NCBI GenBank assembly: GCA_033286805.1
Contig: GCA_033286805.1_4727.1
Length of the DNA: 64,000 bases
Source of the DNA: a phage
Direction: 5' to 3' (one strand)
A program made the translations under genes and the position numbers. Positions 20,269-64,000 of this stretch are shown here, piece after piece. Below the pieces are notes generated by a model. That model searched no databases and was not told the origin of the DNA. It worked only from the letters and a program-made list of their open reading frames with translations. How positions within the stretch are numbered: the stretch's first letter is position 1; each line of letters starts with the position of its first letter.

Positions 20269-20496
20269 TTATACATAAGAGATTAAACGTTGAATGATTT
20301 TTACTTTGCCTTTACCTGGACCTTTCTTGCGGCGATTCAACAGTCGGATACTGTTTCCAGTTACGGTGTCGCCATCATAATCAGCCCGGAACTGTGATAA
20401 AAAAGCAGGCTGTATCGGATCGACACCAGGATTGCTGTGGAAAGGATTGAGACTTAAAAGAGGGTTAGCTGGAATCATCGTATTGTCCTTACTCAA
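20269..20496 (-). CDS. small protein with KKGPGKGK basic motif
   Basis: 75-aa ORF; C-terminal RRKKGPGKGKVK matches the motif seen in three tandem small ORFs at 37615-38182. Confidence 0.35.
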   Translation of the reverse strand: MSKDNTMIPANPLLSLNPFHSNPGVDPIQPAFLSQFRADYDGDTVTGNSIRLLNRRKKGPGKGKVKIIQRLISYV

Positions 20497-53902: not shown

Positions 53903-54792
53903 TCATTTTCTCCATTCTTATCTTGGTCGCAATCACACTCTTCGACGTCTTTCTTACTTAAACGTAAGACGCCGAGTGCGGCATGCTTGAGTTCTTGCAA
54001 CGCGCTTTTCAGCTGACCTTCTTCATCGAAATCAAAATACTTCTCGTTGTAGCTTAACGCTGGAATCATATTTACGAGAGGTTCGATGGCGGGCATCAGC
54101 ATTTCAATGACGACCTTAGGATCAACAAAGCGTTCGAACCCTTCAGGAAGTTTGCTCGCTACAACCTTATCGTTTTTGATGTAGAATTTGTTCTTGAACA
54201 AATCGTCAAGAATAGCATTCTCTTCATCCGTACGTTTTGCGTGAGGACGATCGATCATCTGCACAAACACATCGCTCAACGCTTCAGGCAACGTCGGATT
54301 TTCACGAAGATAAGTTCCGGCTGGAATTTCAATATCGATCTTCGTCCACTCAACAACCTGGTGGTCTCGCGTATAGATGACGTCAACTTCCCATGCCAGG
54401 CCATCAGCGCTTTCTACGGTGTAACGTGTTTTCGCCTGGCCTTCAGGAGCCATGCGTTCGATCGCGTCAAACATCTCGACTGGGATTTCGACTTCGCTTT
54501 CCGTCGCATCACCTGGACCACGATACACCTTCGTGGTCATGATGTATTTCGGCTCTTCGTTATCGATCTGGATCGCACGTGCGCGCACCTGACCTTTCAC
54601 GCCACCAACGGCCGTGTTATCAAACAACCACTGATGTTGCACCATATGTTCGATTTTTGATGCGACTTGACGAAGACGTTCAACACCGTCTTCAGCCAGT
54701 TTACCAAAGAAGACCAGCTCACGTTCCTGCTGTGTCTCACCACTTAACATCATTAAATTGGCGATTTGTTTCACGCCTCTTACTTGTGACAT
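53899..54792 (-). CDS. hypothetical protein
   Basis: 297-aa ORF; 4-bp overlap with the downstream gene. Confidence 0.5.
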   Translation of the reverse strand: MSQVRGVKQIANLMMLSGETQQERELVFFGKLAEDGVERLRQVASKIEHMVQHQWLFDNTAVGGVKGQVRARAIQIDNEEPKYIMTTKVYRGPGDATESEVEIPVEMFDAIERMAPEGQAKTRYTVESADGLAWEVDVIYTRDHQVVEWTKIDIEIPAGTYLRENPTLPEALSDVFVQMIDRPHAKRTDEENAILDDLFKNKFYIKNDKVVASKLPEGFERFVDPKVVIEMLMPAIEPLVNMIPALSYNEKYFDFDEEGQLKSALQELKHAALGVLRLSKKDVEECDCDQDKNGENE

Positions 54793-54860
54793 ACATGCTC
54801 CGGTTATAAGGGCCTACATCGAGGCCCCTCATTGATTTTTGATTCCACCAAACGCTATCG

Positions 54861-57491
54861 TTACAATTCAAAATCTTCATCGATAACACGCTGGGTAAGC
54901 ACTTTGTCGCTGAAGAACTCCACCTTGCGCTGATGGTATTTACGGTGCGCTTCGATAGAAGTACATACCAGATACCAGAACGTTGGCGTCATTCCTTCAA
55001 ACTTCCCTTTCAGCTGACGCAGTCGTCCCAACACCTGAATGTTGCCGGTTCGTGACCCCATCGCTAACGTCATGAACGTCATCACCAAGTCAGGAAGGTC
55101 GATACCGGTACCTGCCGATTTCACGGTTGTAACGCTAATATCGTTATCCAGCAAGACCATGAAATCTTCTTCAGCAGTATAAGGACCGATCTCTAGCTCA
55201 GGAATACGTTCACTGAGATAATGCGACAACGACTTACACATATCAACGGTTGCACAATACACCAGCATCTTCATACCTTCCTGATACTGGTTCATAAAAC
55301 CTTTGATAATAACGGTATAGATGAAGTTAAAGTACGCGAGTTTGAGTTGCTTGTTCTTCATGATAGACTGTTCAAATATCGTGTGCGAATAAGCTCCACC
55401 AAACCCTTTGTATCTGACTTTATCTGTACTGCGTAGTCGATATGTTACCGCATTTACCGCAATGTATTTCTTGTATTCGCCTTTCGCATAACGGGCTTCT
55501 TTCGGATACATCAAATACAGCATCTGTTCGATAAACGGATCATCGGATACCGCTGTTGCCGACAGATAAATGATTTCCGGAATATTGGCGTAACACTTGA
55601 CCTTAAACAAGAAATGCAATGCTTCGTGACACTCGTCATGAATCAGCAAACCTATGCCGGTCTTTTCCCAAAACTCAGCGGGATGGAAGGCATATGGCGC
55701 AACGCAGTTATTCTTCTCGTAGTCCGCAATATAACGTTGGAACATGTTCAAGGAGAACAATGCGATTTTGAAGTCGAGTTCACCCTGTTCAACCAAGGTT
55801 TGAAACTCCAGCATGCTGTAACGAGGAATGTCGGGATGCGGTGGATCCTCCTTAGCGTTCCCGCGTATCTCGATAACATCCCCTGGTTCCATCCCGAAGA
55901 AGTTCAGCAGCGAGCTTCGCCAACCTGGCATATACCGTGGAGAAAGTATAATGCCTGTGCGCACACCCCGTCTAAACACGATTTCCTGCGACATCGCGGT
56001 GTTGTGTGTGACGATAAAGTCTTTCACCACAAACAACGCTGAAGGATCATCGATCGTAATGCAACGTGCATCCGCAACACGGGAAGGTTTGATTGACAGT
56101 ACACGCAGCATACTTTCGAAGTATTGTCCGTCGACAGGACAACGTTCCAGCTTCTTCGGAAGTGTAACGATTTCATGTGGACGTTTATACCGTATCGTAA
56201 CCATGTACGCCAATCGTCCCTTATGTCTTTCCCCCTTGTAGGTGTAATACGGTTGTTTAATACGTAGACGAGCATATCCACCGATCGAACGAACCAAGTA
56301 GATAACGTCATCTGAAAGCTGTTTGCTCGAAGTACAGAAAACAATAGATCCGCCTTTATCTACCGTTCCGTCGGTATCGATAAGACCTGCAAGTATTTCG
56401 CAACGCTGTCTATGCGACGCCATCATGTACTGTTTCGGAACAAACTTCTCCCAGGCTCGTTTACCCATCAACCCCAACTGATCAAGCGCGGATGCTGTCT
56501 CCGACCGCCCACCGTAATTGATTAACGTTGCGGCAGGCGTCTTCGTTACCGCATAGTCGTATTTGTCACGGTACTGTATTTCACAGTCATCAGGAAGACG
56601 ACTTAACACCTTATTCAAGATGAAATCGTCAGGAGTTGTAATGATTGGAGATGTCGTTAAATGACCGTCCCCTAACAGAACACCAAGCACGTACGGATCA
56701 AGCGGTAAATCTGCATCAGGAGTATCCTCAGACTCACAATACGGAATGTAAAGTCGTTTATTGGACAGCTCCAGGATACGAATCATCTCAAGTGTATTGA
56801 TAACCCGCATGGGATAAGGATTGTTTTTGTCCCATCCCCAGTTAGGTCTCATGCACGCCCAGAGATGCTCGCCGCAGGCTTCAACACGACGACCGTCAGC
56901 AAAGACAATCTCATAGAGCTGTTTTGCTTTATGGTCGAAGATATTGGTTACCTTCGTTGGTCGGCCATTAGCAGCCGTGATGGTATCACCTAGCTTCAAA
57001 TCGCCTAATTGACGCCATCCGCCAGGGACTTTTACGAGCGTGGTAAGCGGATTCGCTTTACCAGACCCCGTTTGAGCGGTGTTTAGGCTCATTCTGAAGG
57101 GGGTATCCTTACCCCCGTTCATGTACTCCAGCCATTCTTGTTGATCTTCACGCCACGGAAACTTCCATTTCTTTACGAACTCCACTTCCTTACCTGGTAC
57201 CGGATCGTGATAAACGATTTCCAACCACTCTTTTCGGATTCCTCGAGAGAAGATAAAATCCAAAAACGATTTCAACTGTTCGCGGAGTAAGTATACCTCG
57301 CTATAATCGCTTCTCGCTGCGGCGTAGGTGTTAATGGTATCGGTGACCATTCTCCGTGTACGAGGGTCGCGTCGTTTCCGTAGATGCAAACAACGGTCTC
57401 GAAGGTAATGGCCAATCAAATGGGCAAATCGAAGTCCGTATCCGCTCAGCCTCATGCCATGCGAGAAGACGTCGATACGAGCTAACTTCAT
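54861..57491 (-). CDS. SF2 helicase-like ATPase interrupted by an intein
   Basis: Motif I AQTGSGK is followed by ~352 inserted residues ending HN, then T and the rest of the extein including DExH box LLIHDECHE. ATG at 57489-57491 overlaps the beta-prime stop (ATGA). Confidence 0.65.
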   Translation of the reverse strand: MKLARIDVFSHGMRLSGYGLRFAHLIGHYLRDRCLHLRKRRDPRTRRMVTDTINTYAAARSDYSEVYLLREQLKSFLDFIFSRGIRKEWLEIVYHDPVPGKEVEFVKKWKFPWREDQQEWLEYMNGGKDTPFRMSLNTAQTGSGKANPLTTLVKVPGGWRQLGDLKLGDTITAANGRPTKVTNIFDHKAKQLYEIVFADGRRVEACGEHLWACMRPNWGWDKNNPYPMRVINTLEMIRILELSNKRLYIPYCESEDTPDADLPLDPYVLGVLLGDGHLTTSPIITTPDDFILNKVLSRLPDDCEIQYRDKYDYAVTKTPAATLINYGGRSETASALDQLGLMGKRAWEKFVPKQYMMASHRQRCEILAGLIDTDGTVDKGGSIVFCTSSKQLSDDVIYLVRSIGGYARLRIKQPYYTYKGERHKGRLAYMVTIRYKRPHEIVTLPKKLERCPVDGQYFESMLRVLSIKPSRVADARCITIDDPSALFVVKDFIVTHNTAMSQEIVFRRGVRTGIILSPRYMPGWRSSLLNFFGMEPGDVIEIRGNAKEDPPHPDIPRYSMLEFQTLVEQGELDFKIALFSLNMFQRYIADYEKNNCVAPYAFHPAEFWEKTGIGLLIHDECHEALHFLFKVKCYANIPEIIYLSATAVSDDPFIEQMLYLMYPKEARYAKGEYKKYIAVNAVTYRLRSTDKVRYKGFGGAYSHTIFEQSIMKNKQLKLAYFNFIYTVIIKGFMNQYQEGMKMLVYCATVDMCKSLSHYLSERIPELEIGPYTAEEDFMVLLDNDISVTTVKSAGTGIDLPDLVMTFMTLAMGSRTGNIQVLGRLRQLKGKFEGMTPTFWYLVCTSIEAHRKYHQRKVEFFSDKVLTQRVIDEDFEL
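56001..57056 (-). mobile_element. intein with LAGLIDADG homing-endonuclease domain (in-frame within the helicase)
   Basis: Two LAGLIDADG-type motifs (VLGVLLGDGHL; ILAGLIDTDGTV), Hint-like N-terminal block (LKLGDTITAANG) and C-terminal VTHN followed by Thr. Residues ~146-497 of the host ORF; first intein residue appears to be Ala, so the N-boundary is tentative. Confidence 0.65.
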
Positions 57492-59494
57492 AACGTGATT
57501 ACATCCTCCGGTTTAGGTTCTTTACGCGGTAAAAGCATGTAGTCGATCGGATGATCCGGCTTCATGGTTGGGATATAACTGTTCGGGTTTTGGAACGCAT
57601 CCAGTTGCTCTTGGTGAGCGAACTTCATACTCAAGGAGCGCATGTTCATGTTCTTCTTGAAGGTACTGAAGTATCGTGTTGTTCCCTGTTTCGGCATGCG
57701 ATAATCTTTCGTGTGTGGCGAACGAATCATGCTGGCGTAGAGAATAACGTCGAGATGCGAAAGGTTCATTCGCAGACGCTGGGCACACAGGCGATGCCAA
57801 TAATACAGCACGTTTGCAACTTCTTCCGGTGTTGCTTCGTCTTCCGAGAGGAATCCGGCACTGAAAGAACCTTTCCCGAATTTGAACTCACGTTCGATTT
57901 CTTTTGCGTATTCCATCATGTTTTTGTGGATTAACGGCATCTGGAATAACGTACGTGAATTGTCCCAATGTTTCAAGTCGAAAATCACAATCCCGTCAGA
58001 CGTCACTTCCCAGCTATGGCGTTTAAGATAACGGATAAACGCTTTACTCGGGACGACGGGACGTCCACAGAAATCGAAATTGACTTTGAGCTTACGATAG
58101 CTTTCATCTTTCCTGTCGTAAATCTCCATATCACAAAGCGTCATGTTAAACAGACGTTGCGGTATCAGCGAACTGATTTCTTCCGCTTCGGCTACATCGT
58201 ACAACATGTTCGCAAGACCTAACTTCATCTTAATCAGCACGTGTTTACCTTTCAGCTCACGTGCGAGTTTGATGTCGTTCATGTTCTGGCTGTAGCGAAG
58301 GATATGTTGATATTCCGGCGGGATTGGTGCTGTGGATACCGTTGACGAACCATCGTGGTGTTTGGTGGAAAGAATGTTCTGCGTTACCTGTTGCGAACAG
58401 GTACGCGCTGCGCCATCGCCAACATTATCGGTTAGTGCGAAGTTATGACTTAATTCACCATAACACGTTGTACATACCCCAGCAGGATCGGGATGATGAC
58501 AATAGTTAACGGAGCGCATGCGTACCGTCGTGCCGATCAATTCTTTCATGTGTGGTTGTATAGCTACCAACGAACCGTCATCACGAATAATGAATCGACC
58601 ATGGAAGCCACGCAGGTCGGTCTCATCGCGGATTGGCATCGGGATGGTCTCTTTACTACCACAATCACCAGGATGAAGTCGTTGTACAACCGCTGTCGCT
58701 ATCTGAAGTTCACGACCGAAATATTCAGACTTTTTAATCTGCTCTTTGTTGAACAGCAACGATTTCGCCGCAGAACGACTTTCTTTCAAGCTGTCGGGAA
58801 GAGAGATCAAACCAGCTGCGTATGACCGCATTACTGGATCACGGAATATCTCGGAGTTAATATCAGTCAAGAATCCACGCATCCCAATACACTGTAGCAC
58901 CTGCCCAATCGAAACGTGTTCGGTTCTTACCGCACGTGCAATAGGGTTTGCATGTAACGTTTTATCGGTGCTCAGTACCTTCGTCAGTTTCTTGTATGCG
59001 CTTTCGATACCTTCGCGGGTGGGTTCCGCTTCAGCGATGATTTTCTTAACTTCAGGGTGTACAGTAATCTGATAAAAATCATCCGCACAAATAGTTGTTA
59101 CGTATTCCTCCAACGCATACGTAAAGAAGTTATACACATTGTTAAACATATCGAACAATGCTTTCCAGAGAACCTCGCGATTCTCTTGTGGGTAAGCATA
59201 CATACATTGACGATACGCTGCGCTTTGCAACGCAACCGACGAACCAGCAGTAAACTTGCGTTTATCGACCAGGTTCTCTTTTGTCAACGGTGTCTCAGGA
59301 TACATGCGATGCACAGACCAATGCATGTAACTAAAGAAAATGCGTCGCGCACGTAATTCATGAACGCCATCGTCCATCTCGATATATACACGGTCATTAG
59401 GCTGTGCCCATTCGAACACCTCATCAACCGGCCAGTGCATAAGCTCGCGTGCCCTCACACGACGTTTCGTGGTGGTCGTCTGTGTTGTATTCAT
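57488..59494 (-). CDS. divergent multisubunit RNA polymerase beta-prime subunit fragment (C-terminal portion)
   Basis: RMRSVNYCHHPDPAGVCTTCYGELSHN aligns with E. coli beta-prime [26 protein letters not shown]; the following GDGAARTCSQQVTQNILSTKHHDG aligns with trigger-loop region [24 protein letters not shown]. ATG verified at 59492-59494. Confidence 0.65.
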   Translation of the reverse strand: MNTTQTTTTKRRVRARELMHWPVDEVFEWAQPNDRVYIEMDDGVHELRARRIFFSYMHWSVHRMYPETPLTKENLVDKRKFTAGSSVALQSAAYRQCMYAYPQENREVLWKALFDMFNNVYNFFTYALEEYVTTICADDFYQITVHPEVKKIIAEAEPTREGIESAYKKLTKVLSTDKTLHANPIARAVRTEHVSIGQVLQCIGMRGFLTDINSEIFRDPVMRSYAAGLISLPDSLKESRSAAKSLLFNKEQIKKSEYFGRELQIATAVVQRLHPGDCGSKETIPMPIRDETDLRGFHGRFIIRDDGSLVAIQPHMKELIGTTVRMRSVNYCHHPDPAGVCTTCYGELSHNFALTDNVGDGAARTCSQQVTQNILSTKHHDGSSTVSTAPIPPEYQHILRYSQNMNDIKLARELKGKHVLIKMKLGLANMLYDVAEAEEISSLIPQRLFNMTLCDMEIYDRKDESYRKLKVNFDFCGRPVVPSKAFIRYLKRHSWEVTSDGIVIFDLKHWDNSRTLFQMPLIHKNMMEYAKEIEREFKFGKGSFSAGFLSEDEATPEEVANVLYYWHRLCAQRLRMNLSHLDVILYASMIRSPHTKDYRMPKQGTTRYFSTFKKNMNMRSLSMKFAHQEQLDAFQNPNSYIPTMKPDHPIDYMLLPRKEPKPEDVITL

Positions 59495-59639
59495 TATTGC
59501 TTTCCGATTTAAATGGTTTTATCATACGGTTTACCAAATCCGTTGGACTTTACTATCGTTGTGATAGCATCGGGAATCCCTTCCCTTAGGTTATGTAGGT
59601 GTTAATATATCTCCACTGCTGGCCTTTATGTCGGCAGCA

Positions 59640-60125
59640 TTATCCAGCTTTCTGTTGTAAAGCGTATGGATCCATAGCGTCAGACATATCCGCAAAAACG
59701 GTGAGAATAAACCCCTTTATCTGTCTCACCTCGGTTACACGAAGCCCTTTATCATTGCGATATACGTTTTCTTCACCGACCAACTTTGGTCGAATAACAT
59801 AAACTCCATCAACAAGCGGGAATGTCGGATACGGATAAATACCGATACGAATGATGTTTGGGTGATCGCCTAGAAGGTCACGTCCAAACTTATCGACTCG
59901 ACCATAAATCGCCCCATCCACACCTTCCACTTCAATGAGATCGTTTCGAATATCCTGAAATAGCTGCTCTAACGTGTCGGCGGGGTACGTATATGCGACA
60001 CCTAACGCTGGATCCTCAATGGTTTTGACACTGAATCCGTTAAGCCAAACAATCTGTTCATCCGCCCATGTTTCTTCATATACCGTTAATCCATCGCCGT
60101 ATATGTTGGCGTGTGCTATCTCCAT
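59640..60125 (-). CDS. hypothetical protein
   Basis: 161-aa ORF between the RNAP subunit genes. Confidence 0.45.
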   Translation of the reverse strand: MEIAHANIYGDGLTVYEETWADEQIVWLNGFSVKTIEDPALGVAYTYPADTLEQLFQDIRNDLIEVEGVDGAIYGRVDKFGRDLLGDHPNIIRIGIYPYPTFPLVDGVYVIRPKLVGEENVYRNDKGLRVTEVRQIKGFILTVFADMSDAMDPYALQQKAG

Positions 60126-60239
60126 AATCTCATTTCCTCTTATACGTTAGGATAGATGACATGTTGGATATACGTTGCCTTTGCATATATTGCTTTATTT
60201 CCGTCAGAAATAACGGAAAATAAAAACAACGACATAATT

Positions 60240-60269
60240 CCCTCCCACCTCCACATGGGAGAGGGAGGG
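60240..60269 (-). terminator. rho-independent terminator
   Basis: CCCTCCC / GGGAGGG stem followed on the minus strand by GAAUUAUGUCGUUGUUUUUAUUUUCC; just after the stop of gene 60283..60645. Confidence 0.55.
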
Positions 60270-60282
60270 TTATTCGTGTTTA

Positions 60283-60645
60283 TTATTCTACGCTGTCTTC
60301 TTCCGTATCTTCCTCTTCGGAACCATCGAATGTTTTCATTGTGACGGTGGTATCCCAGTTAGCCGCGTAATCAGCCATCGCTTCACGCAGCGCTTCTTCA
60401 CCAGCATCACCAGCCAGGTCAAGTACAACCAAACCCTGTGCGACGTTTTGAGCAACGGTATCAATAACGGTTGCATCTTCTTCAAAACTACGTACGGGTT
60501 CAATGGTACCTACATCAACAGCGTAGTTCGTGGTTGCTGTAAACACGGCGACTTGTAGCGCATTGCTATCTTCATCATGCAGTGCTGCTTCAATACCGAT
60601 CGGACGAGCCAGTTCTTGTAGTGTTAATTTGCGAATTAAGTTCAT
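60283..60645 (-). CDS. hypothetical acidic protein
   Basis: 120-aa ORF with highly acidic C-terminus (SEEEDTEEDSVE). Confidence 0.45.
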   Translation of the reverse strand: MNLIRKLTLQELARPIGIEAALHDEDSNALQVAVFTATTNYAVDVGTIEPVRSFEEDATVIDTVAQNVAQGLVVLDLAGDAGEEALREAMADYAANWDTTVTMKTFDGSEEEDTEEDSVE

Positions 60646-60677
60646 TATGTTTTCCTCAGGTGAATGTTAGCAATCGT

Positions 60678-61103
60678 TTAAAACTTTAAAACTTTTTCGA
60701 TACGATGGTTGACGAGTTCATTGAACGACTCTTCAGCTTGTTCGATGATTTCATCAACGTCGATATCTAATTGTTGGGGTTGGATAACATGCTCTTTCAT
60801 GGTTTCCAGCCAGTATTCGGCTTTAATCATGACGTTAGCGACGTGTTCGACCTGGCTGCGTATGTCGACGATCTGGCAGTCAGGATTGTTAATATCGATG
60901 ATGTGTCCGTGGTGGTTGATAAAACCTAGCTTATTTGATGCCCTTACCGCATCGCGGGTAAGTTCTTGCAAGATTAAATTATTAACGTAGTTCACTGCTA
61001 CGGAACGATTTTCGTTATCACTCATACCAGGGATCCTCTTTAAGTCATCACATTCTAGTGTTAAGCAGTTAAAATAAACCGTTCCTTTTATCAGCATAAA
61101 CAT
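60678..61103 (-). CDS. hypothetical protein
   Basis: 141-aa ORF; ATG at 61101-61103 directly abuts the upstream hairpin, so the second ATG at ~61097 may be the real start. Confidence 0.45.
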   Translation of the reverse strand: MFMLIKGTVYFNCLTLECDDLKRIPGMSDNENRSVAVNYVNNLILQELTRDAVRASNKLGFINHHGHIIDINNPDCQIVDIRSQVEHVANVMIKAEYWLETMKEHVIQPQQLDIDVDEIIEQAEESFNELVNHRIEKVLKF

Positions 61104-61132
61104 CCTCCTCCCACCACATGGGTAGGAGGAGG
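61104..61132 (-). terminator. stem-loop abutting a start codon
   Basis: CCTCCTCC / GGAGGAGG stem; on the mRNA the 3' arm GGAGGAGG is followed immediately by AUGUUUAUG. Confidence 0.4.
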
Positions 61133-61143
61133 CGTAATATGCA

Positions 61144-61554
61144 TCAGAAAGGAGGACGATCTTTAAATTCTAGCAACGTGTCTTCGAAGCAAGCGATGAG
61201 TTCAGACTGCAATTCGGTACGGCCTTGTTCACCGAAGAGTTCCAGCAACATTAACCCCCGAGCGGTCTTCGTAGCAACCTCTTCGCAGATGCGGAGATCG
61301 CGAACTTCATCATCGCCGACATCTTTACGTAACTGCGCTGCAATGGGCTTAAGATTACCGTTTTCATCGTGTTCGTCACGAAATGCATCATAAGCCGCAT
61401 CGATGTTCGCGATCCGTGTCAACCCTTCAGAATCCCGCCAGTCTCGATATAATCCAAGCAGACGGTTATGATTCTTCGTTTTGACGTTCGGTGCTGGAAG
61501 GTTGCGCAACAGATGTGGTGTAATCATTGCTATCACGCTATCCGAATGATCCAT
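61144..61554 (-). CDS. hypothetical protein
   Basis: 136-aa ORF. Confidence 0.45.
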   Translation of the reverse strand: MDHSDSVIAMITPHLLRNLPAPNVKTKNHNRLLGLYRDWRDSEGLTRIANIDAAYDAFRDEHDENGNLKPIAAQLRKDVGDDEVRDLRICEEVATKTARGLMLLELFGEQGRTELQSELIACFEDTLLEFKDRPPF

Positions 61555-61565
61555 CGTATACCTCG

Positions 61566-63899
61566 TTAGCTTTCGCAGTCATCTGCGTCGATGATTTGTC
61601 CGCCAGCAACGTTCAGTTGATGATACAGAATCCTCAACGCACGGTTGCCGCCAATGGGATACTTCTCGAAGTTGGTCGCAATAGGAATCGCTGACGGTTT
61701 ATCGGTCGCATAGATGCTTTCAGTGATGCTATCCACCTGTTTTGGATTGTTCGCATAATCCATAAAGACGCTTGCGAACCATCCGCCAGCAAAGGCGGTA
61801 ACTTCGCGATGTTCAGATTCACCACAGTAACGAGTTGGTTGCTCTTTACCCGGAGAACTGTATTTATCGCTATTACTGAGTTTCGACGGTAATCCATGCG
61901 CTTGCAGTTTAGGGATGCCCACCGCTGACCAGTCGTTCGCCGTCTTCTCCAACATCATGATGTACGTGTCACCGATCGCAATATCGTTCTTGGTTGTCCG
62001 CCATTGCCCAGAACGTCCACGATACCGTACAGGACCTTTCTTCAACGGGAACTCACGAATCAGATTCTCCATACGTTCTGAACCTGCTGCGATACTGTCC
62101 GTCGGGATATAAACTTCCGTACCGTGGCGCTGTACGTACCGTAAATGATCCCATTTATCCTCATCCGTGATACAGTATTTTTCAACAACCTGTTCCACGA
62201 ACTCAGGACTGACGATATAGTAGTAGCGCATCAGTGTGTTCCAAGCGGTCTCCAGATCGCCTGCATCCATCACCGGTTTCAGTTCACGCATGATCTGATC
62301 ACCAACGCCGTTGATGTACGGTGCGTTAACACGACTTAAACTCATCCTTTTGATTACCGTACTATCGTCGAACATGAAGTCCGCAACGTTACCCCATTGG
62401 TCGACCGGCATTTCATCGTCTTCCATGATGTCGGTTACGACGAATTTATCACCCGCCATACCGGTGAATTTAAACCCGATACCTGGAACGACGTCGTACG
62501 TGTACGTGATGGTCACACGCCAATCATCGAGATTCTCTTTGCGGTAATCGCGAGTCGGTAGCACATGACGTAGCTGTCCGTTGGGATTGCGGATATCAAT
62601 ACCATGTTCAGCATCAGCCAGGTTCAACCACCACATCACCGTTTGATGATGACGTATCGGCGTACCAACGCGTTCACGTTCGTACTTACGAACAGCATCC
62701 TGAATCCGGGTGTAAAGCAAACCGATTGCGTTCTCGTATTTCAGGAATTGACGATACGGAGGACGCATCTTCTCTTCCATCATAATCGCACGCTCGCGGG
62801 CTTGACGTCCAGAACGACGATGTCGATCGCTGACAACATCGATATCCGTTACACGCGCATTCGGTTCCGCGTAAGTGAGGTCATCGTAAACATAATCCAC
62901 GCGCTGAAGATTACACGTCATCATGTCAACAACGCTAAGGATAGGATCGATTTCGCGTGTTGCTGCGAGTAACCCATCCTTACGAATACGCTCACCGTTC
63001 TCGGGTATTGCTTGATATACCTCGTCATCACCGTAGAGATTGATTGGGTATCGCGATTTACCTGACGTGATTGTTCGCTTCTCAATACCGGTACTGGTGA
63101 AATGCTTCAATACACCACGACGGGCAACGCCACCATCTTCAATACACTGATAGAAGCTACCGAAACACACCTTGCAATCGCGACCGTAGCCCCACTCGCG
63201 CGTTTCTTGATTGATCGCTGGGCTTTCCATCAAACGAGAATATCGCGGTACGATCTGGCCTCGACGGAGGGAATGGAACAAGTTGGTTGGTCGAAAACGG
63301 AAACCGTACTGCTGATGCATGATGTGATGCTCAGGCACTTCGAGCAAACGCAGTTCGTGACGGTTACCATCCTCTTGGTTTTCATACAGCACGTAATGCA
63401 TCGTGTTTGTTTTGATGCTGTTTGCTGTATGCCCCGGTTGGAAACGTGGGATGATATCTATGATGCGAGATTCAACTGGAAACTCTACTGACCACGTGTT
63501 CTGTCCGTACTGGTATTCGATCCCCGTCGTCAGTCGGGACGGTTTCGCATCTTTGATAACCAACGCTTGGCTAAGATGTCCACCAAACATCGCAGCGCGC
63601 TGTGCTGAGTTATAATGCAATAGCCCGTTAAGTCCTGTCCCTACGCCAGTATACTCCTGTTTAATGGGAATGATTTTACCTTCAGCGATTGCCTGCTTCA
63701 CAGATTCATAAAGAGGTTTTTCTTTATAATGCATAGGACTTCCTATTATCGAATTGAGGTACGTCATGTCTAACACGCCCCTGAACGACTTTCTTAAGAC
63801 AAACCCCGATGACCTCATCCACGATCTTGATTTCAGGAACGTTGTTGAGATGCATCTGGAATATTTCAAAAATGCCGGACTGGTCTCTACGATAGACAT
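61566..63899 (-). CDS. divergent multisubunit RNA polymerase beta subunit fragment (C-terminal portion)
   Basis: [20 protein letters not shown] aligns with E. coli beta [46 protein letters not shown] with [52 protein letters not shown] with [22 protein letters not shown]. Start could be 63899 or the internal ATG at ~63734. Confidence 0.7.
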   Translation of the reverse strand: [777 protein letters not shown]

Positions 63900-64000
63900 A
63901 CCACCCGAACGCGCCTACGAATTCGATGGTAACTTTTATGGATTGTGTCGTGTTCTGCTCGGTGAGGGCAGTGAACCAATGCACTGGATAACCATGAGAC

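Follow-up and report, generated by a model that had tools for sequence, protein, structure and literature searches.

Escherichia phage vB_EcoM_Goslar is a nucleus-forming jumbo phage of E. coli, belonging to the genus Goslarvirus in the Chimalliviridae. Its polymerase genes are already known: the RefSeq annotation carries the label 'RNA polymerase beta subunit', and gp165 and gp171 are labelled non-virion RNA polymerase (nvRNAP) in Table S4 of a virion study (bioRxiv 10.64898/2026.04.21.720040). The corresponding phiKZ proteins, gp74 and gp71-73, are represented in solved structures (7OGP, 7OGR, 8QUE and 9RJS), in which the enzyme, compared to its bacterial counterpart, has no α or ω and includes a σ-like fifth subunit as an integral part. 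The phiKZ structure paper assigns the bridge helix to L242-Y279, the cysteines to C288, C341, C350 and C353, and the trigger helix to T365-V383, and it names two conserved lysines of the double-psi β-barrel (DPBB), K386 and K394. A more distant system is the AR9/PBS2-type nvRNAP (PDB 7S00, chains C and D), with β and β′ that are likewise split; AR9 does not encode chimallin, and its enzyme is described in PMC9209446 as recognising uracil-containing template-strand promoters.

Here, we analysed a 64,000-nt stretch of phage DNA (contig GCA_033286805.1_4727.1; hereafter the window), in which a sequence-only reading had placed divergent, split C-terminal fragments of phiKZ-like β and β′ between 57488 and 63899.

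Relation of the window to Goslar

Judged by its sequence, the window belongs to a phage closely related to Goslar, at ~96% nucleotide identity. DNA identity of 95-96% was found over positions 1-25000 and 40000-64000, collinear with Goslar 91490-156031, in a comparison that covered the flagged region and three stretches, together about three quarters of the window. This high identity and collinearity place the window in Goslarvirus (Chimalliviridae); the phiKZ-like origin proposed earlier is borne out by homology, but the known Goslar genus and the non-virion nature of the enzyme had gone unrecognised. At the gp165/gp171 region, Goslar (NC_048170) has an identical gene order with the same five small ORFs in between, at 96-97% nucleotide identity and ~3-4% synonymous divergence. 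The β′ C-terminal protein (β′C) is 99.7% identical to Goslar gp165 (58 synonymous and 2 non-synonymous differences), the β C-terminal protein (βC) shows zero amino-acid differences from gp171 (70 synonymous, 0 non-synonymous), and the small ORFs differ from their counterparts by few residue changes and indels.

Table 1 Features of the polymerase genes and the intervening island, in window coordinates
Feature	Position	Strand	Remarks
nvRNAP β′ C-terminal subunit gene, 668 aa	57488..59494	(-)	Ortholog of Goslar gp165, phiKZ gp74
β′C elements			Bridge helix ~232-269; Zn site C278, C332, C341, C344; first trigger helix ~356-374
gp166-like acidic protein, 161 aa, pI 4.4	59640..60125	(-)	Goslar-like phages only
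gp167-like ORF, 31 aa, doubtful gene	60140..60235	(-)	Annotated in Goslar; start inside tail of H2
Hairpin H2, CCCTCCCTCTCC-CATGT-GGAGGTGGGAGGG	60240..60269	(-)	Just downstream of gp168-like gene; then T-rich stretch
gp168-like protein, very acidic, 120 aa, pI 4.05	60283..60645	(-)	Goslar ortholog in virions
gp169-like acidic protein, 115 aa	60678..61025	(-)	ATG preceded by AAGAGGA; longest ORF reaches 61103
Hairpin H1, CCTCCTCCTACC-CATGT-GGTGGGAGGAGG	61104..61132	(-)	Between gp170-like stop and gp169-like start
gp170-like acidic helical protein, 136 aa	61144..61554	(-)	Region's fastest-diverging gene
nvRNAP β C-terminal subunit gene, 722 aa from M56	61566..63734	(-)	Ortholog of Goslar gp171, phiKZ gp71-73
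βC elements			Fork-loop-like block; DPBB lysines K422 and K430; C-terminal clamp/flap region

Two genes match the C-terminal halves of a split RNA polymerase

We conclude, with a probability of roughly 95%, that the two large genes are the C-terminal β and β′ halves of a Goslar-like nvRNAP, and that the small-ORF block between them is a separate accessory island. Along its full length, β′C belongs to the gp74 family: it matches phrog_3015 in PHROGs (E=4.7e-170; residues 11-658 on profile positions 3-652 of 653) and phiKZ gp74 in the structure database (7OGP_D; E=1.3e-86, residues 11-654). Similarly, βC shows full-length homology to the gp71-73 family, with matches to phrog_3295 in PHROGs (E=2e-180) and to 7OGP_C (E=1e-85), and a profile E of 4.6e-182; both PHROGs families are named 'RNA polymerase beta subunit'. 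Homology to the phiKZ subunits is near full-length at ~30% identity, whereas the AR9 enzyme, the second-best structural-database match, is much more distant (profile E=6e-58 for βC and 1e-33 for β′C).

Both proteins also align with bacterial subunits, although each bacterial subunit is here split in two genes and the recognisable likeness is confined to short stretches. A β′C profile, over residues ~150-380, aligned to C. difficile β′ 674-912 (E=5.5e-13) and to E. coli 713-939, a stretch that holds the bridge helix, the DCG...C...C..C zinc site and the first trigger helix of bacterial RpoC. These three elements, shared with phiKZ and characteristic of the gp74 family, are all found in β′C, and all 6 orthologs compared keep its four cysteines unchanged, in register with those of phiKZ. 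The RpoC-like Cys cluster and trigger segment noticed earlier are thus present by profile alignment, but the supposed C-terminal position of the cluster was wrong, as it lies mid-protein.

For βC, a profile built from the window protein and four chimallivirus orthologs aligned the block 'SAQRAAMFGGHLSQAL' to 'DDANRALMGSNMMRQAVP' of bacterial β (9n9p_C 626-798), and 'GMAGDKFVV' to 'GRHGNKGIV' (9n9p_C 1034-1103). The same profile matched E. coli β 1051-1136 (E=1e-17) and also reached archaeal and eukaryotic second-largest subunits; a direct phmmer match extended to E. coli β 1241, including the 'GYMYMLKL' area. The DANRALMG-like, GxxGxKG and 'GYMYMLKL' blocks that had been picked out by eye were in this way all placed on bacterial β, corresponding in RpoB to the fork-loop-like block, the GxxGxKG motif and the C-terminal region. 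The DPBB with its two lysines and the fork-loop-like block, in which 'RAAMFGGHLSQA' aligns to bacterial 'NRALMGSNMMRQA', both features of the gp71-73 family, are present; K422 and K430 (722-aa numbering) are invariant and align to phiKZ K386 and K394.

Neither protein is a bacterial RpoB or RpoC proper, since each ORF covers a C-terminal half only and the Pfam gathering scores are missed. Among all seven proteins scanned, the sole Pfam hit was RNA_pol_Rpb2_6 at 16.3 bits, below the curated threshold of 23.4 bits, and no Rpb1 domain was detected. We attribute these misses to divergence, not to missing homology, and did not count the sub-threshold score against homology, since PHROGs, PDB and the profile searches settle the matter. 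The core of the sequence-only reading, divergent split β/β′ C-terminal fragments of phiKZ-like type, is therefore upheld by PHROGs, the phiKZ chains and the bacterial profiles; its alternative of no significant profile hit was not seen, both RNAP β and β′ being clearly matched, and we found no evidence contradicting the polymerase assignment.

Both minus-strand ORFs had been correctly located, but 63899 is the end of the longest ORF and not the likely start of βC. This start is most likely M56, with an ATG at 63734 and AGGAAG just before it, matching the Goslar annotation. The 165 nt upstream of M56 share sequence with the divergent gp172-like gene, whose start is at 63766(+). Although perfectly conserved, these 165 nt were rejected as a regulatory element because they coincide with the gp172-like 5′ end and because 100% identity is also seen in other 100-nt segments.

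The N-terminal partners had been said to lie outside the window, in agreement with the absence of any RNA polymerase family match among the ten other scanned ORFs of at least 318 aa; two ORFs outside that scan, of 709 and 483 aa, are annotated in Goslar as a DEAD/DEAH helicase and a BspA-family protein. Goslar gp175, the gp68-like subunit, and YP_009820872.1, the β′ N-terminal (DxDGD) subunit encoded beside chimallin, are labelled nvRNAP and map beyond the window end. A hidden β′ N-terminal fragment was considered and rejected: six-frame translation yielded one DxDGD motif, in a 75-aa ORF at 20269-20496, with ~0.5 expected by chance. This ORF belongs to a cluster of short hypothetical genes, and the endolysin gene is a few genes away.

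An island of small acidic ORFs between the polymerase genes

The two polymerase genes are separated by 2.07 kb of small acidic ORFs, whereas in phiKZ the spacing is 30 nt. Four ORFs had been noticed here (59640-61554), and all four are present; Goslar annotates five between βC and β′C, the fifth being the doubtful 31-aa ORF. Two further Goslar-like genomes have the same layout. Six other chimalliviruses lack the island, their βC and β′C genes lying next to each other, and no homologs of its proteins were found outside Goslar-like genomes in homolog and tblastn searches. The island thus appears to be an accessory insertion specific to the Goslar lineage, and not a part of the polymerase.

The individual proteins show the same restriction. 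The gp166-like protein, with no Pfam or PHROG hit, has seven homologs at 83-95% identity, of which five span the full 161 aa, all on Goslar-like contigs, and the 23 gp168-like homologs, all at least 87% identical, lie on ~240-kb Goslar-like contigs; against Goslar, the gp168-like gene shows 24 synonymous and 7 non-synonymous differences. The gp169-like protein was found by tblastn in Goslar only, and its 141-aa longest ORF is more likely a 115-aa gene (60678-61025). For the gp170-like protein, six homologs were found, all Goslar-like, two of which are just 53-54% identical; compared with L003 and L037, its nucleotide identity is 59-77%, against mostly 84-100% in the flanks. AF2 models computed from shallow alignments had a mean pLDDT of 42 for the gp166-like protein, unusable for a fold search, and of 48 for the gp170-like protein, likewise too poor. 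The gp168-like and gp170-like proteins share the pattern '...A.GL..L.L.G..G...L'; examined as candidate paralogs, they gave no BLASTP match to each other, and hhalign gave 36% probability over 35 columns.

In Goslar virions, LC-MS/MS yielded ~219 copies of gp168 and ~92 of gp169 per virion, with ~1 of gp166 and ~3 of gp170, as label-free estimates that the authors state to be good to about ±50% (bioRxiv 10.64898/2026.04.21.720040). By analogy with these Goslar data, the central pair of gp169-like and gp168-like genes most likely encodes virion-packaged proteins.

This pair is bracketed by two strong and nearly identical hairpins. In RNA folding, 46 nt containing H1 reached -24.9 kcal/mol (z=-5.5; 12-bp stem) and 61 nt containing H2 reached -25.7 kcal/mol (z=-4.9); H2 is a candidate terminator or RNA-stability element. 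Both share the core CCCATGTGG, which occurs twice in the 64 kb against 0.29 expected, and the pattern CCCATGTGG(N0-3)TGGGAGG has just 2 matches in the whole Goslar genome. We rejected the idea of a genome- or family-wide repeat after an IMG/VR scan, in which Goslar had two copies and other matches were single, on contigs of varied length. An Rfam scan of 54000-64000 gave no hits at E<=0.1, and scans for σ70 promoter and terminator consensus sequences gave counts at or below shuffled expectation, with H1 alone notable.

A rather unlikely but conceivable picture is that the H1/H2-bracketed gp169/gp168-like unit would be an insulated or formerly mobile cassette of packaged, injected acidic proteins, with the gp170-like or gp166-like protein acting as an nvRNAP modulator or counter-defence factor. 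We also consider it unlikely that at least one of the small ORFs encodes a lineage-specific nvRNAP accessory factor, co-expressed from the shared gene block and serving the assembly, import or regulation of the enzyme. The ORFs sit between two nvRNAP subunit genes and have the same orientation; they are also genuine coding genes that remain intact in each of the three Goslar-like genomes compared, with more synonymous than non-synonymous changes in all island comparisons except that of the gp170-like gene with L003 (25 synonymous, 31 non-synonymous). Moreover, gp166 and gp170 are nearly missing from Goslar virions and would therefore act inside the cell, and import of the phiKZ nvRNAP is described as needing dedicated small factors (bioRxiv 10.64898/2026.09.21.753271). 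Against such a role speak the abutting genes of the six island-free chimalliviruses, the restriction of all homologs to Goslar-like phages, the presence of gp168 and gp169 in virions where the nvRNAP is not found, and the strong hairpins that split the ORFs into units; the gp170-like gene, in addition, changes at a much higher rate than the polymerase genes do, which is more typical of host-interaction genes than of genes for partners of so conserved an enzyme. The earlier suggestion that the small ORFs are RNAP-associated consequently loses its footing, given their lineage specificity, their lack of outside homologs and the abundance of gp168 and gp169 in Goslar virions. The gp166-like or gp170-like protein may nevertheless bind nvRNAP, which is compatible with the data.

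Assignment to the non-virion enzyme

Both polymerase genes belong to the non-virion, not the virion, RNA polymerase (vRNAP). Since chimalliviruses hold two paralogous sets of split β and β′ genes, the two genes could in principle encode vRNAP subunits, injected with the DNA and transcribing early genes, and β′C has a weak local match to phiKZ gp80 of the vRNAP around the Cys cluster (31 bits, E=9e-5). In BLASTP, however, β′C matched phiKZ gp74 of the nvRNAP over its full length with 300 bits (E=2e-96), alongside the gp71-73 match of βC, and tblastn pointed to a single place per chimallivirus genome, the nvRNAP β′C locus in 7 of 7 examined. Synteny likewise matches the nvRNAP block. The order gp68-like, gp69-like, gp70-like, small reverse gene, βC, β′C and SF2 helicase is common to Eowyn, RAY, RSF1 and Yong XC32, and recurs in phiKZ and PhiPA3, where the small reverse gene is not annotated; phiKZ and the window are alike in having βC, β′C and the helicase downstream of the ChmC/gp68/gp69/gp70 block, although the phiKZ βC gene is interrupted (gene 72 between 71 and 73) and that of the window is one ORF. 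Finally, the nvRNAP-labelled Goslar orthologs gp165 and gp171 were at or near zero, with <=0.3 copies per virion compared to ~14-21 for vRNAP subunits by the same label-free estimates (Table S4, bioRxiv 10.64898/2026.04.21.720040). Sequence, synteny and the virion absence of the Goslar orthologs thus place both genes in the non-virion set, and a vRNAP identity is effectively refuted.

Strong purifying selection on both polymerase genes is observed, together with homology, motif conservation and synteny. That they are degraded or non-functional remnants of captured cellular rpoB and rpoC, as their C-terminal halves and missed Pfam thresholds might suggest, has a negligible chance of being right and is refuted by the conservation pattern, given this extreme selection, the catalytic-cycle residues invariant across orthologs just 24-33% identical, and the place of the phiKZ orthologs as subunits of an active, structurally solved enzyme.

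An intein in the adjacent helicase

The β′C stop overlaps the start of the helicase gene by 4 nt. This helicase carries a 352-aa intein that is absent in Goslar and is inserted, relative to Goslar gp164, exactly between GSGK and T of the Walker A motif. Class 3 inteins are recognised by insertion in a host motif, Ala1, a block B His-x-Trp, a block F Cys, a C-terminal Thr-His-Asn and a +1 Thr. The insert starts with ANPL, contains GEHLW and ARCITID, and ends in VTHN followed by T; Pfam detected LAGLIDADG_3 (E=1.9e-6) and Hom_end (E=3.8e-4). On these features, it is predicted to be a class 3 intein with a LAGLIDADG homing endonuclease.

Discussion

From phiKZ, whose enzyme has been characterised both structurally and biochemically, and from Goslar, we infer the assembly, timing, localisation and promoter use of the window enzyme, and from Goslar its completeness, with the other three subunits presumably encoded outside the window. 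βC and β′C would assemble with a β N-terminal subunit, a β′ N-terminal subunit bearing DxDGD and a σ-like subunit of the phiKZ gp68 family into a five-subunit enzyme without α or ω. In this enzyme, β′C would contribute the bridge helix, the trigger loop and the four-Cys zinc site, while βC would provide the flap region and part of the clamp, one double-psi β-barrel that carries the two conserved lysines, and a contact surface for the fifth subunit. The nvRNAP would then transcribe the middle and late genes of the phage within the phage nucleus, without relying on the host RNA polymerase.

The discovery value of the two genes themselves is small, with the Goslar genes annotated in RefSeq and labelled nvRNAP in the literature, and with cryo-EM structures at hand for the phiKZ orthologs. 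The analysis fixes the window as that of a Goslar-like chimallivirus, identifies the two genes as part of the non-virion enzyme, and takes the small ORFs out of the hypothesis that they are polymerase-associated. Of minor residual interest are the lineage-specific island, in which hairpins flank a pair of virion-protein genes, and the intein in the neighbouring helicase, whose three allelic states form a natural series for gain, decay and loss.

The polymerase genes of a Goslar-like jumbo phage

The flagged interval (57488-63899) is 96.3% identical at the DNA level to Escherichia phage vB_EcoM_Goslar. Three stretches of the window were searched (the flagged interval, 1-25000 and 40000-64000); they show 95-96% identity to Goslar and follow its order across 91490-156031. 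The window therefore belongs to a nucleus-forming jumbo phage of the Goslar type (Chimalliviridae, Goslarvirus). The window is distinct from Goslar itself and from L003, a second Goslar-like genome, in IMG/VR (~94% identical), and many further Goslar-like genomes of ~238-250 kb were found among assemblies of E. coli, Shigella and Salmonella as well as in metagenomes.

The two large minus-strand polymerase-like ORFs of the sequence-only reading were confirmed, with several small ORFs on the same strand between them. Both long ORFs are genuine genes under purifying selection: compared with Goslar, the gene for the C-terminal half of beta (betaC; Goslar gp171) carries 70 synonymous and 0 non-synonymous differences, and that for the C-terminal half of beta' (beta'C; Goslar gp165) carries 58 and 2, respectively. 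GGAAAG stands just before the ATG start of the beta'C gene, whose stop and the next gene's start overlap by 4 nt. For betaC, the start is most likely M56 (ATG at 63734, preceded by AGGAAG), in agreement with the 722-aa Goslar annotation; the longest ORF extends 165 nt further, into a region shared with a divergent gp172-like gene. The betaC and gp172-like start codons lie only ~31 nt apart (63734-63766), and any promoters of these two genes must therefore fall inside coding sequence. Eowyn, RAY, RSF1 and Yong XC32 share a small reverse-strand gene where the gp172-like gene lies.

Features of the polymerase region and its surroundings, in window coordinates
Feature	Position	Strand	Remarks
75-aa ORF	20269-20496	-	contains RADYDGDT
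SF2 helicase gene	54861-57491	-	876 aa; directly downstream of beta'C
Helicase intein	~56001-57056		352 aa
beta'C gene	57488-59494	-	668 aa
Hairpin H2	60240-60269	-	directly downstream of gp168-like gene
Hairpin H1	61104-61132	-	directly upstream of gp169-like gene
gp170-like gene	61144-61554	-	
betaC ORF	61566-63899	-	777 aa as longest ORF
gp172-like gene	start 63766	+	

Homology to multisubunit RNA polymerases

Both proteins match PHROGs 'RNA polymerase beta subunit' families end to end (beta'C, phrog_3015, E=4.7e-170; betaC, phrog_3295, 2e-180). Among all solved structures, their best matches are chains of the phiKZ non-virion RNA polymerase (nvRNAP), namely 7OGP_D (PHIKZ074; E=1.3e-86) for beta'C and 7OGP_C (PHIKZ071, i.e. 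gp71-73; E=1e-85) for betaC, followed in both cases by AR9 nvRNAP chains. A Pfam scan was nearly blank, returning one sub-threshold Rpb2_6 match, which confirms the earlier description of the proteins as divergent.

Elements of the catalytic cycle are conserved, and the RpoB and RpoC motif blocks first aligned by eye were borne out by profile searches. Profiles were built from the window proteins and their Eowyn, RAY, RSF1 and Yong XC32 orthologs (24-33% identical to the window proteins), with phiKZ added for beta'C only. The beta profile places '...SAPRAAMFGGHLGQAL' opposite 'DDANRALMGSNMMRQAVP' within residues 626-798 of bacterial beta (9n9p_C), and 'dlhGdKgVv' opposite 'GRHGNKGIV' within residues 1034-1103; the equivalent of the latter region in E. 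coli beta (1051-1136) was matched with E=1e-17. The beta' profile matches C. difficile beta' 674-912 (E=5.5e-13) and E. coli beta' 713-939, a region that contains the bridge helix, the zinc cluster (DCG...C...C..C) and the first trigger helix. Residues singled out in phiKZ (PMC8287921) have invariant counterparts here: gp74 C288, C341, C350 and C353 correspond to beta'C C278, C332, C341 and C344, and gp71-73 K386 and K394 to betaC K422 and K430. Judged from these profile matches and conserved phiKZ residues, each protein represents about the C-terminal half of the cellular subunit, as had been proposed.

Assignment to the non-virion polymerase

Chimalliviruses have two RNA polymerases, one virion and one non-virion. 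Four lines of evidence agree in pointing to the non-virion enzyme, which sharpens the initial assignment to a phiKZ-like split polymerase into the already known nvRNAP of a Goslar-like chimallivirus. Against phiKZ, the match of beta'C to the non-virion gp74 is full-length at 300 bits, versus only 31 bits, confined to the Cys cluster, with the virion gp80. Synteny is conserved, with a block of ChmC, gp68-like, gp69-like, gp70-like, small reverse gene, betaC, beta'C and SF2 helicase common to Eowyn, RAY, RSF1 and Yong XC32, and matched in phiKZ and PhiPA3 except for the small reverse gene. In RAY, the annotation names the two orthologs 'nvRNAP beta subunit 2' and 'nvRNAP beta' subunit 2'. Finally, Goslar virion proteomics labels gp165 and gp171 'nvRNAP', at ~0.25 and 0 copies per virion, compared to ~14-21 copies for subunits of the virion-packaged polymerase (bioRxiv 10.64898/2026.04.21.720040).

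A lineage-specific island between the polymerase genes

The small ORFs between the two genes had been suggested to be RNAP-associated, a proposal that the evidence does not support. They form a 2.07-kb island, found in the same order in three Goslar-like genomes, in which Goslar annotates five ORFs, gp166 to gp170 (gp167, at 31 aa, is doubtful). In all six other chimalliviruses examined, betaC and beta'C abut: they either overlap or are separated by no more than 71 nt. Four island proteins, with pI values of 4.05-4.97, are acidic; they fall into no family of Pfam or PHROGs, and a 5.8-billion-protein search or phage-genome tblastn recovered homologs from Goslar-like genomes only. Published LC-MS/MS of Goslar virions put gp168, which the authors of that study count among ten abundant virion proteins without known function, at an estimated ~219 copies per virion and gp169 at ~92, along with ~3 of gp170 and ~1 of gp166 (bioRxiv 10.64898/2026.04.21.720040). 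Given its absence from the six other chimalliviruses, its Goslar-like-only homologs and these copy numbers, the most plausible reading of the island is an accessory insertion specific to the lineage, whose middle pair (gp169-like and gp168-like), by analogy with Goslar, most likely encodes virion-packaged proteins; association with the polymerase is not supported, although the gp166-like and gp170-like proteins may conceivably have one. Predicted structures of the latter two were too poor in quality for use.

Island genes diverge faster than the polymerase genes, with a sharp hot spot at the gp170-like gene, which is 59-77% identical in nucleotides to two other Goslar-like genomes, while against the same two most of the flanking sequence, adjacent polymerase genes included, reaches 84-100%. 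Identity of the gp170-like protein to two of its Goslar-like homologs falls to 53-54%, with ORF length and both termini kept, a pattern typical of host-interaction or arms-race genes.

Two strong, mutually similar hairpins (H1 and H2), in each of which a CATGT loop links a polypyrimidine arm to a polypurine arm, border the gp169-/gp168-like pair. Short stretches containing either fold at ~-25 kcal/mol (z ~-5); the window contains just two copies of their common core, CCCATGTGG, and the entire Goslar genome just two matches to the fuller hairpin pattern. The hairpins may be terminators or stabilisers that insulate the pair from the flanking polymerase genes; a cassette boundary is a possible alternative role.

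Intein alleles and possible mosaicism

The neighbouring SF2 helicase has 876 aa here versus 524 aa in Goslar (gp164), the difference being an intein that interrupts the Walker A motif precisely between GSGK and T. This intein carries two LAGLIDADG motifs and class-3-like signatures (Ala1, GEHLW, ARCITID, and VTHN followed by Thr). In L003 and L037, which are also Goslar-like genomes, the same site holds a 229-aa intein with splicing blocks in common and without LAGLIDADG motifs; there are therefore three allelic states: none, mini or degenerate, and full.

Across 57000-64000, identity to three other Goslar-like genomes (L001, L003 and L037) changes from block to block; 58400-58700, for example, is 77-79% identical to L037 versus 91-98% to L001 and L003. 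Such shifts suggest recombination mosaicism within the genus.

Partner subunits and proposed role

As anticipated, the N-terminal fragments lie outside the window: a scan of ten other ORFs of at least 318 aa placed none in an RNA polymerase family (their products are tail fibre and tail proteins, an NAD-dependent ligase, thymidylate synthase, an exonuclease and unknowns), and two further large ORFs outside the scan (709 and 483 aa) correspond to Goslar genes annotated as a DEAD/DEAH helicase and a BspA-family repeat protein. A six-frame scan for the polymerase DxDGD loop gave a single hit in the window, in the 75-aa ORF, which is far too short for a beta' fragment and is consistent with chance; the neighbours of this ORF are small genes, and the endolysin gene is a few genes away. 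The Goslar gp68-like subunit (gp175) falls just past the window's right end, and the Goslar beta' N-terminal subunit gene adjoins chimallin.

By analogy with phiKZ, as described in PMC8287921 and PMC4666361, betaC and beta'C would join the N-terminal fragments of beta and beta' (the latter with DFDGD) and a fifth, sigma-like subunit integral to the enzyme, which would contain neither alpha nor omega subunits. Such an nvRNAP would transcribe the middle and late genes in the phage nucleus, independently of the host polymerase.
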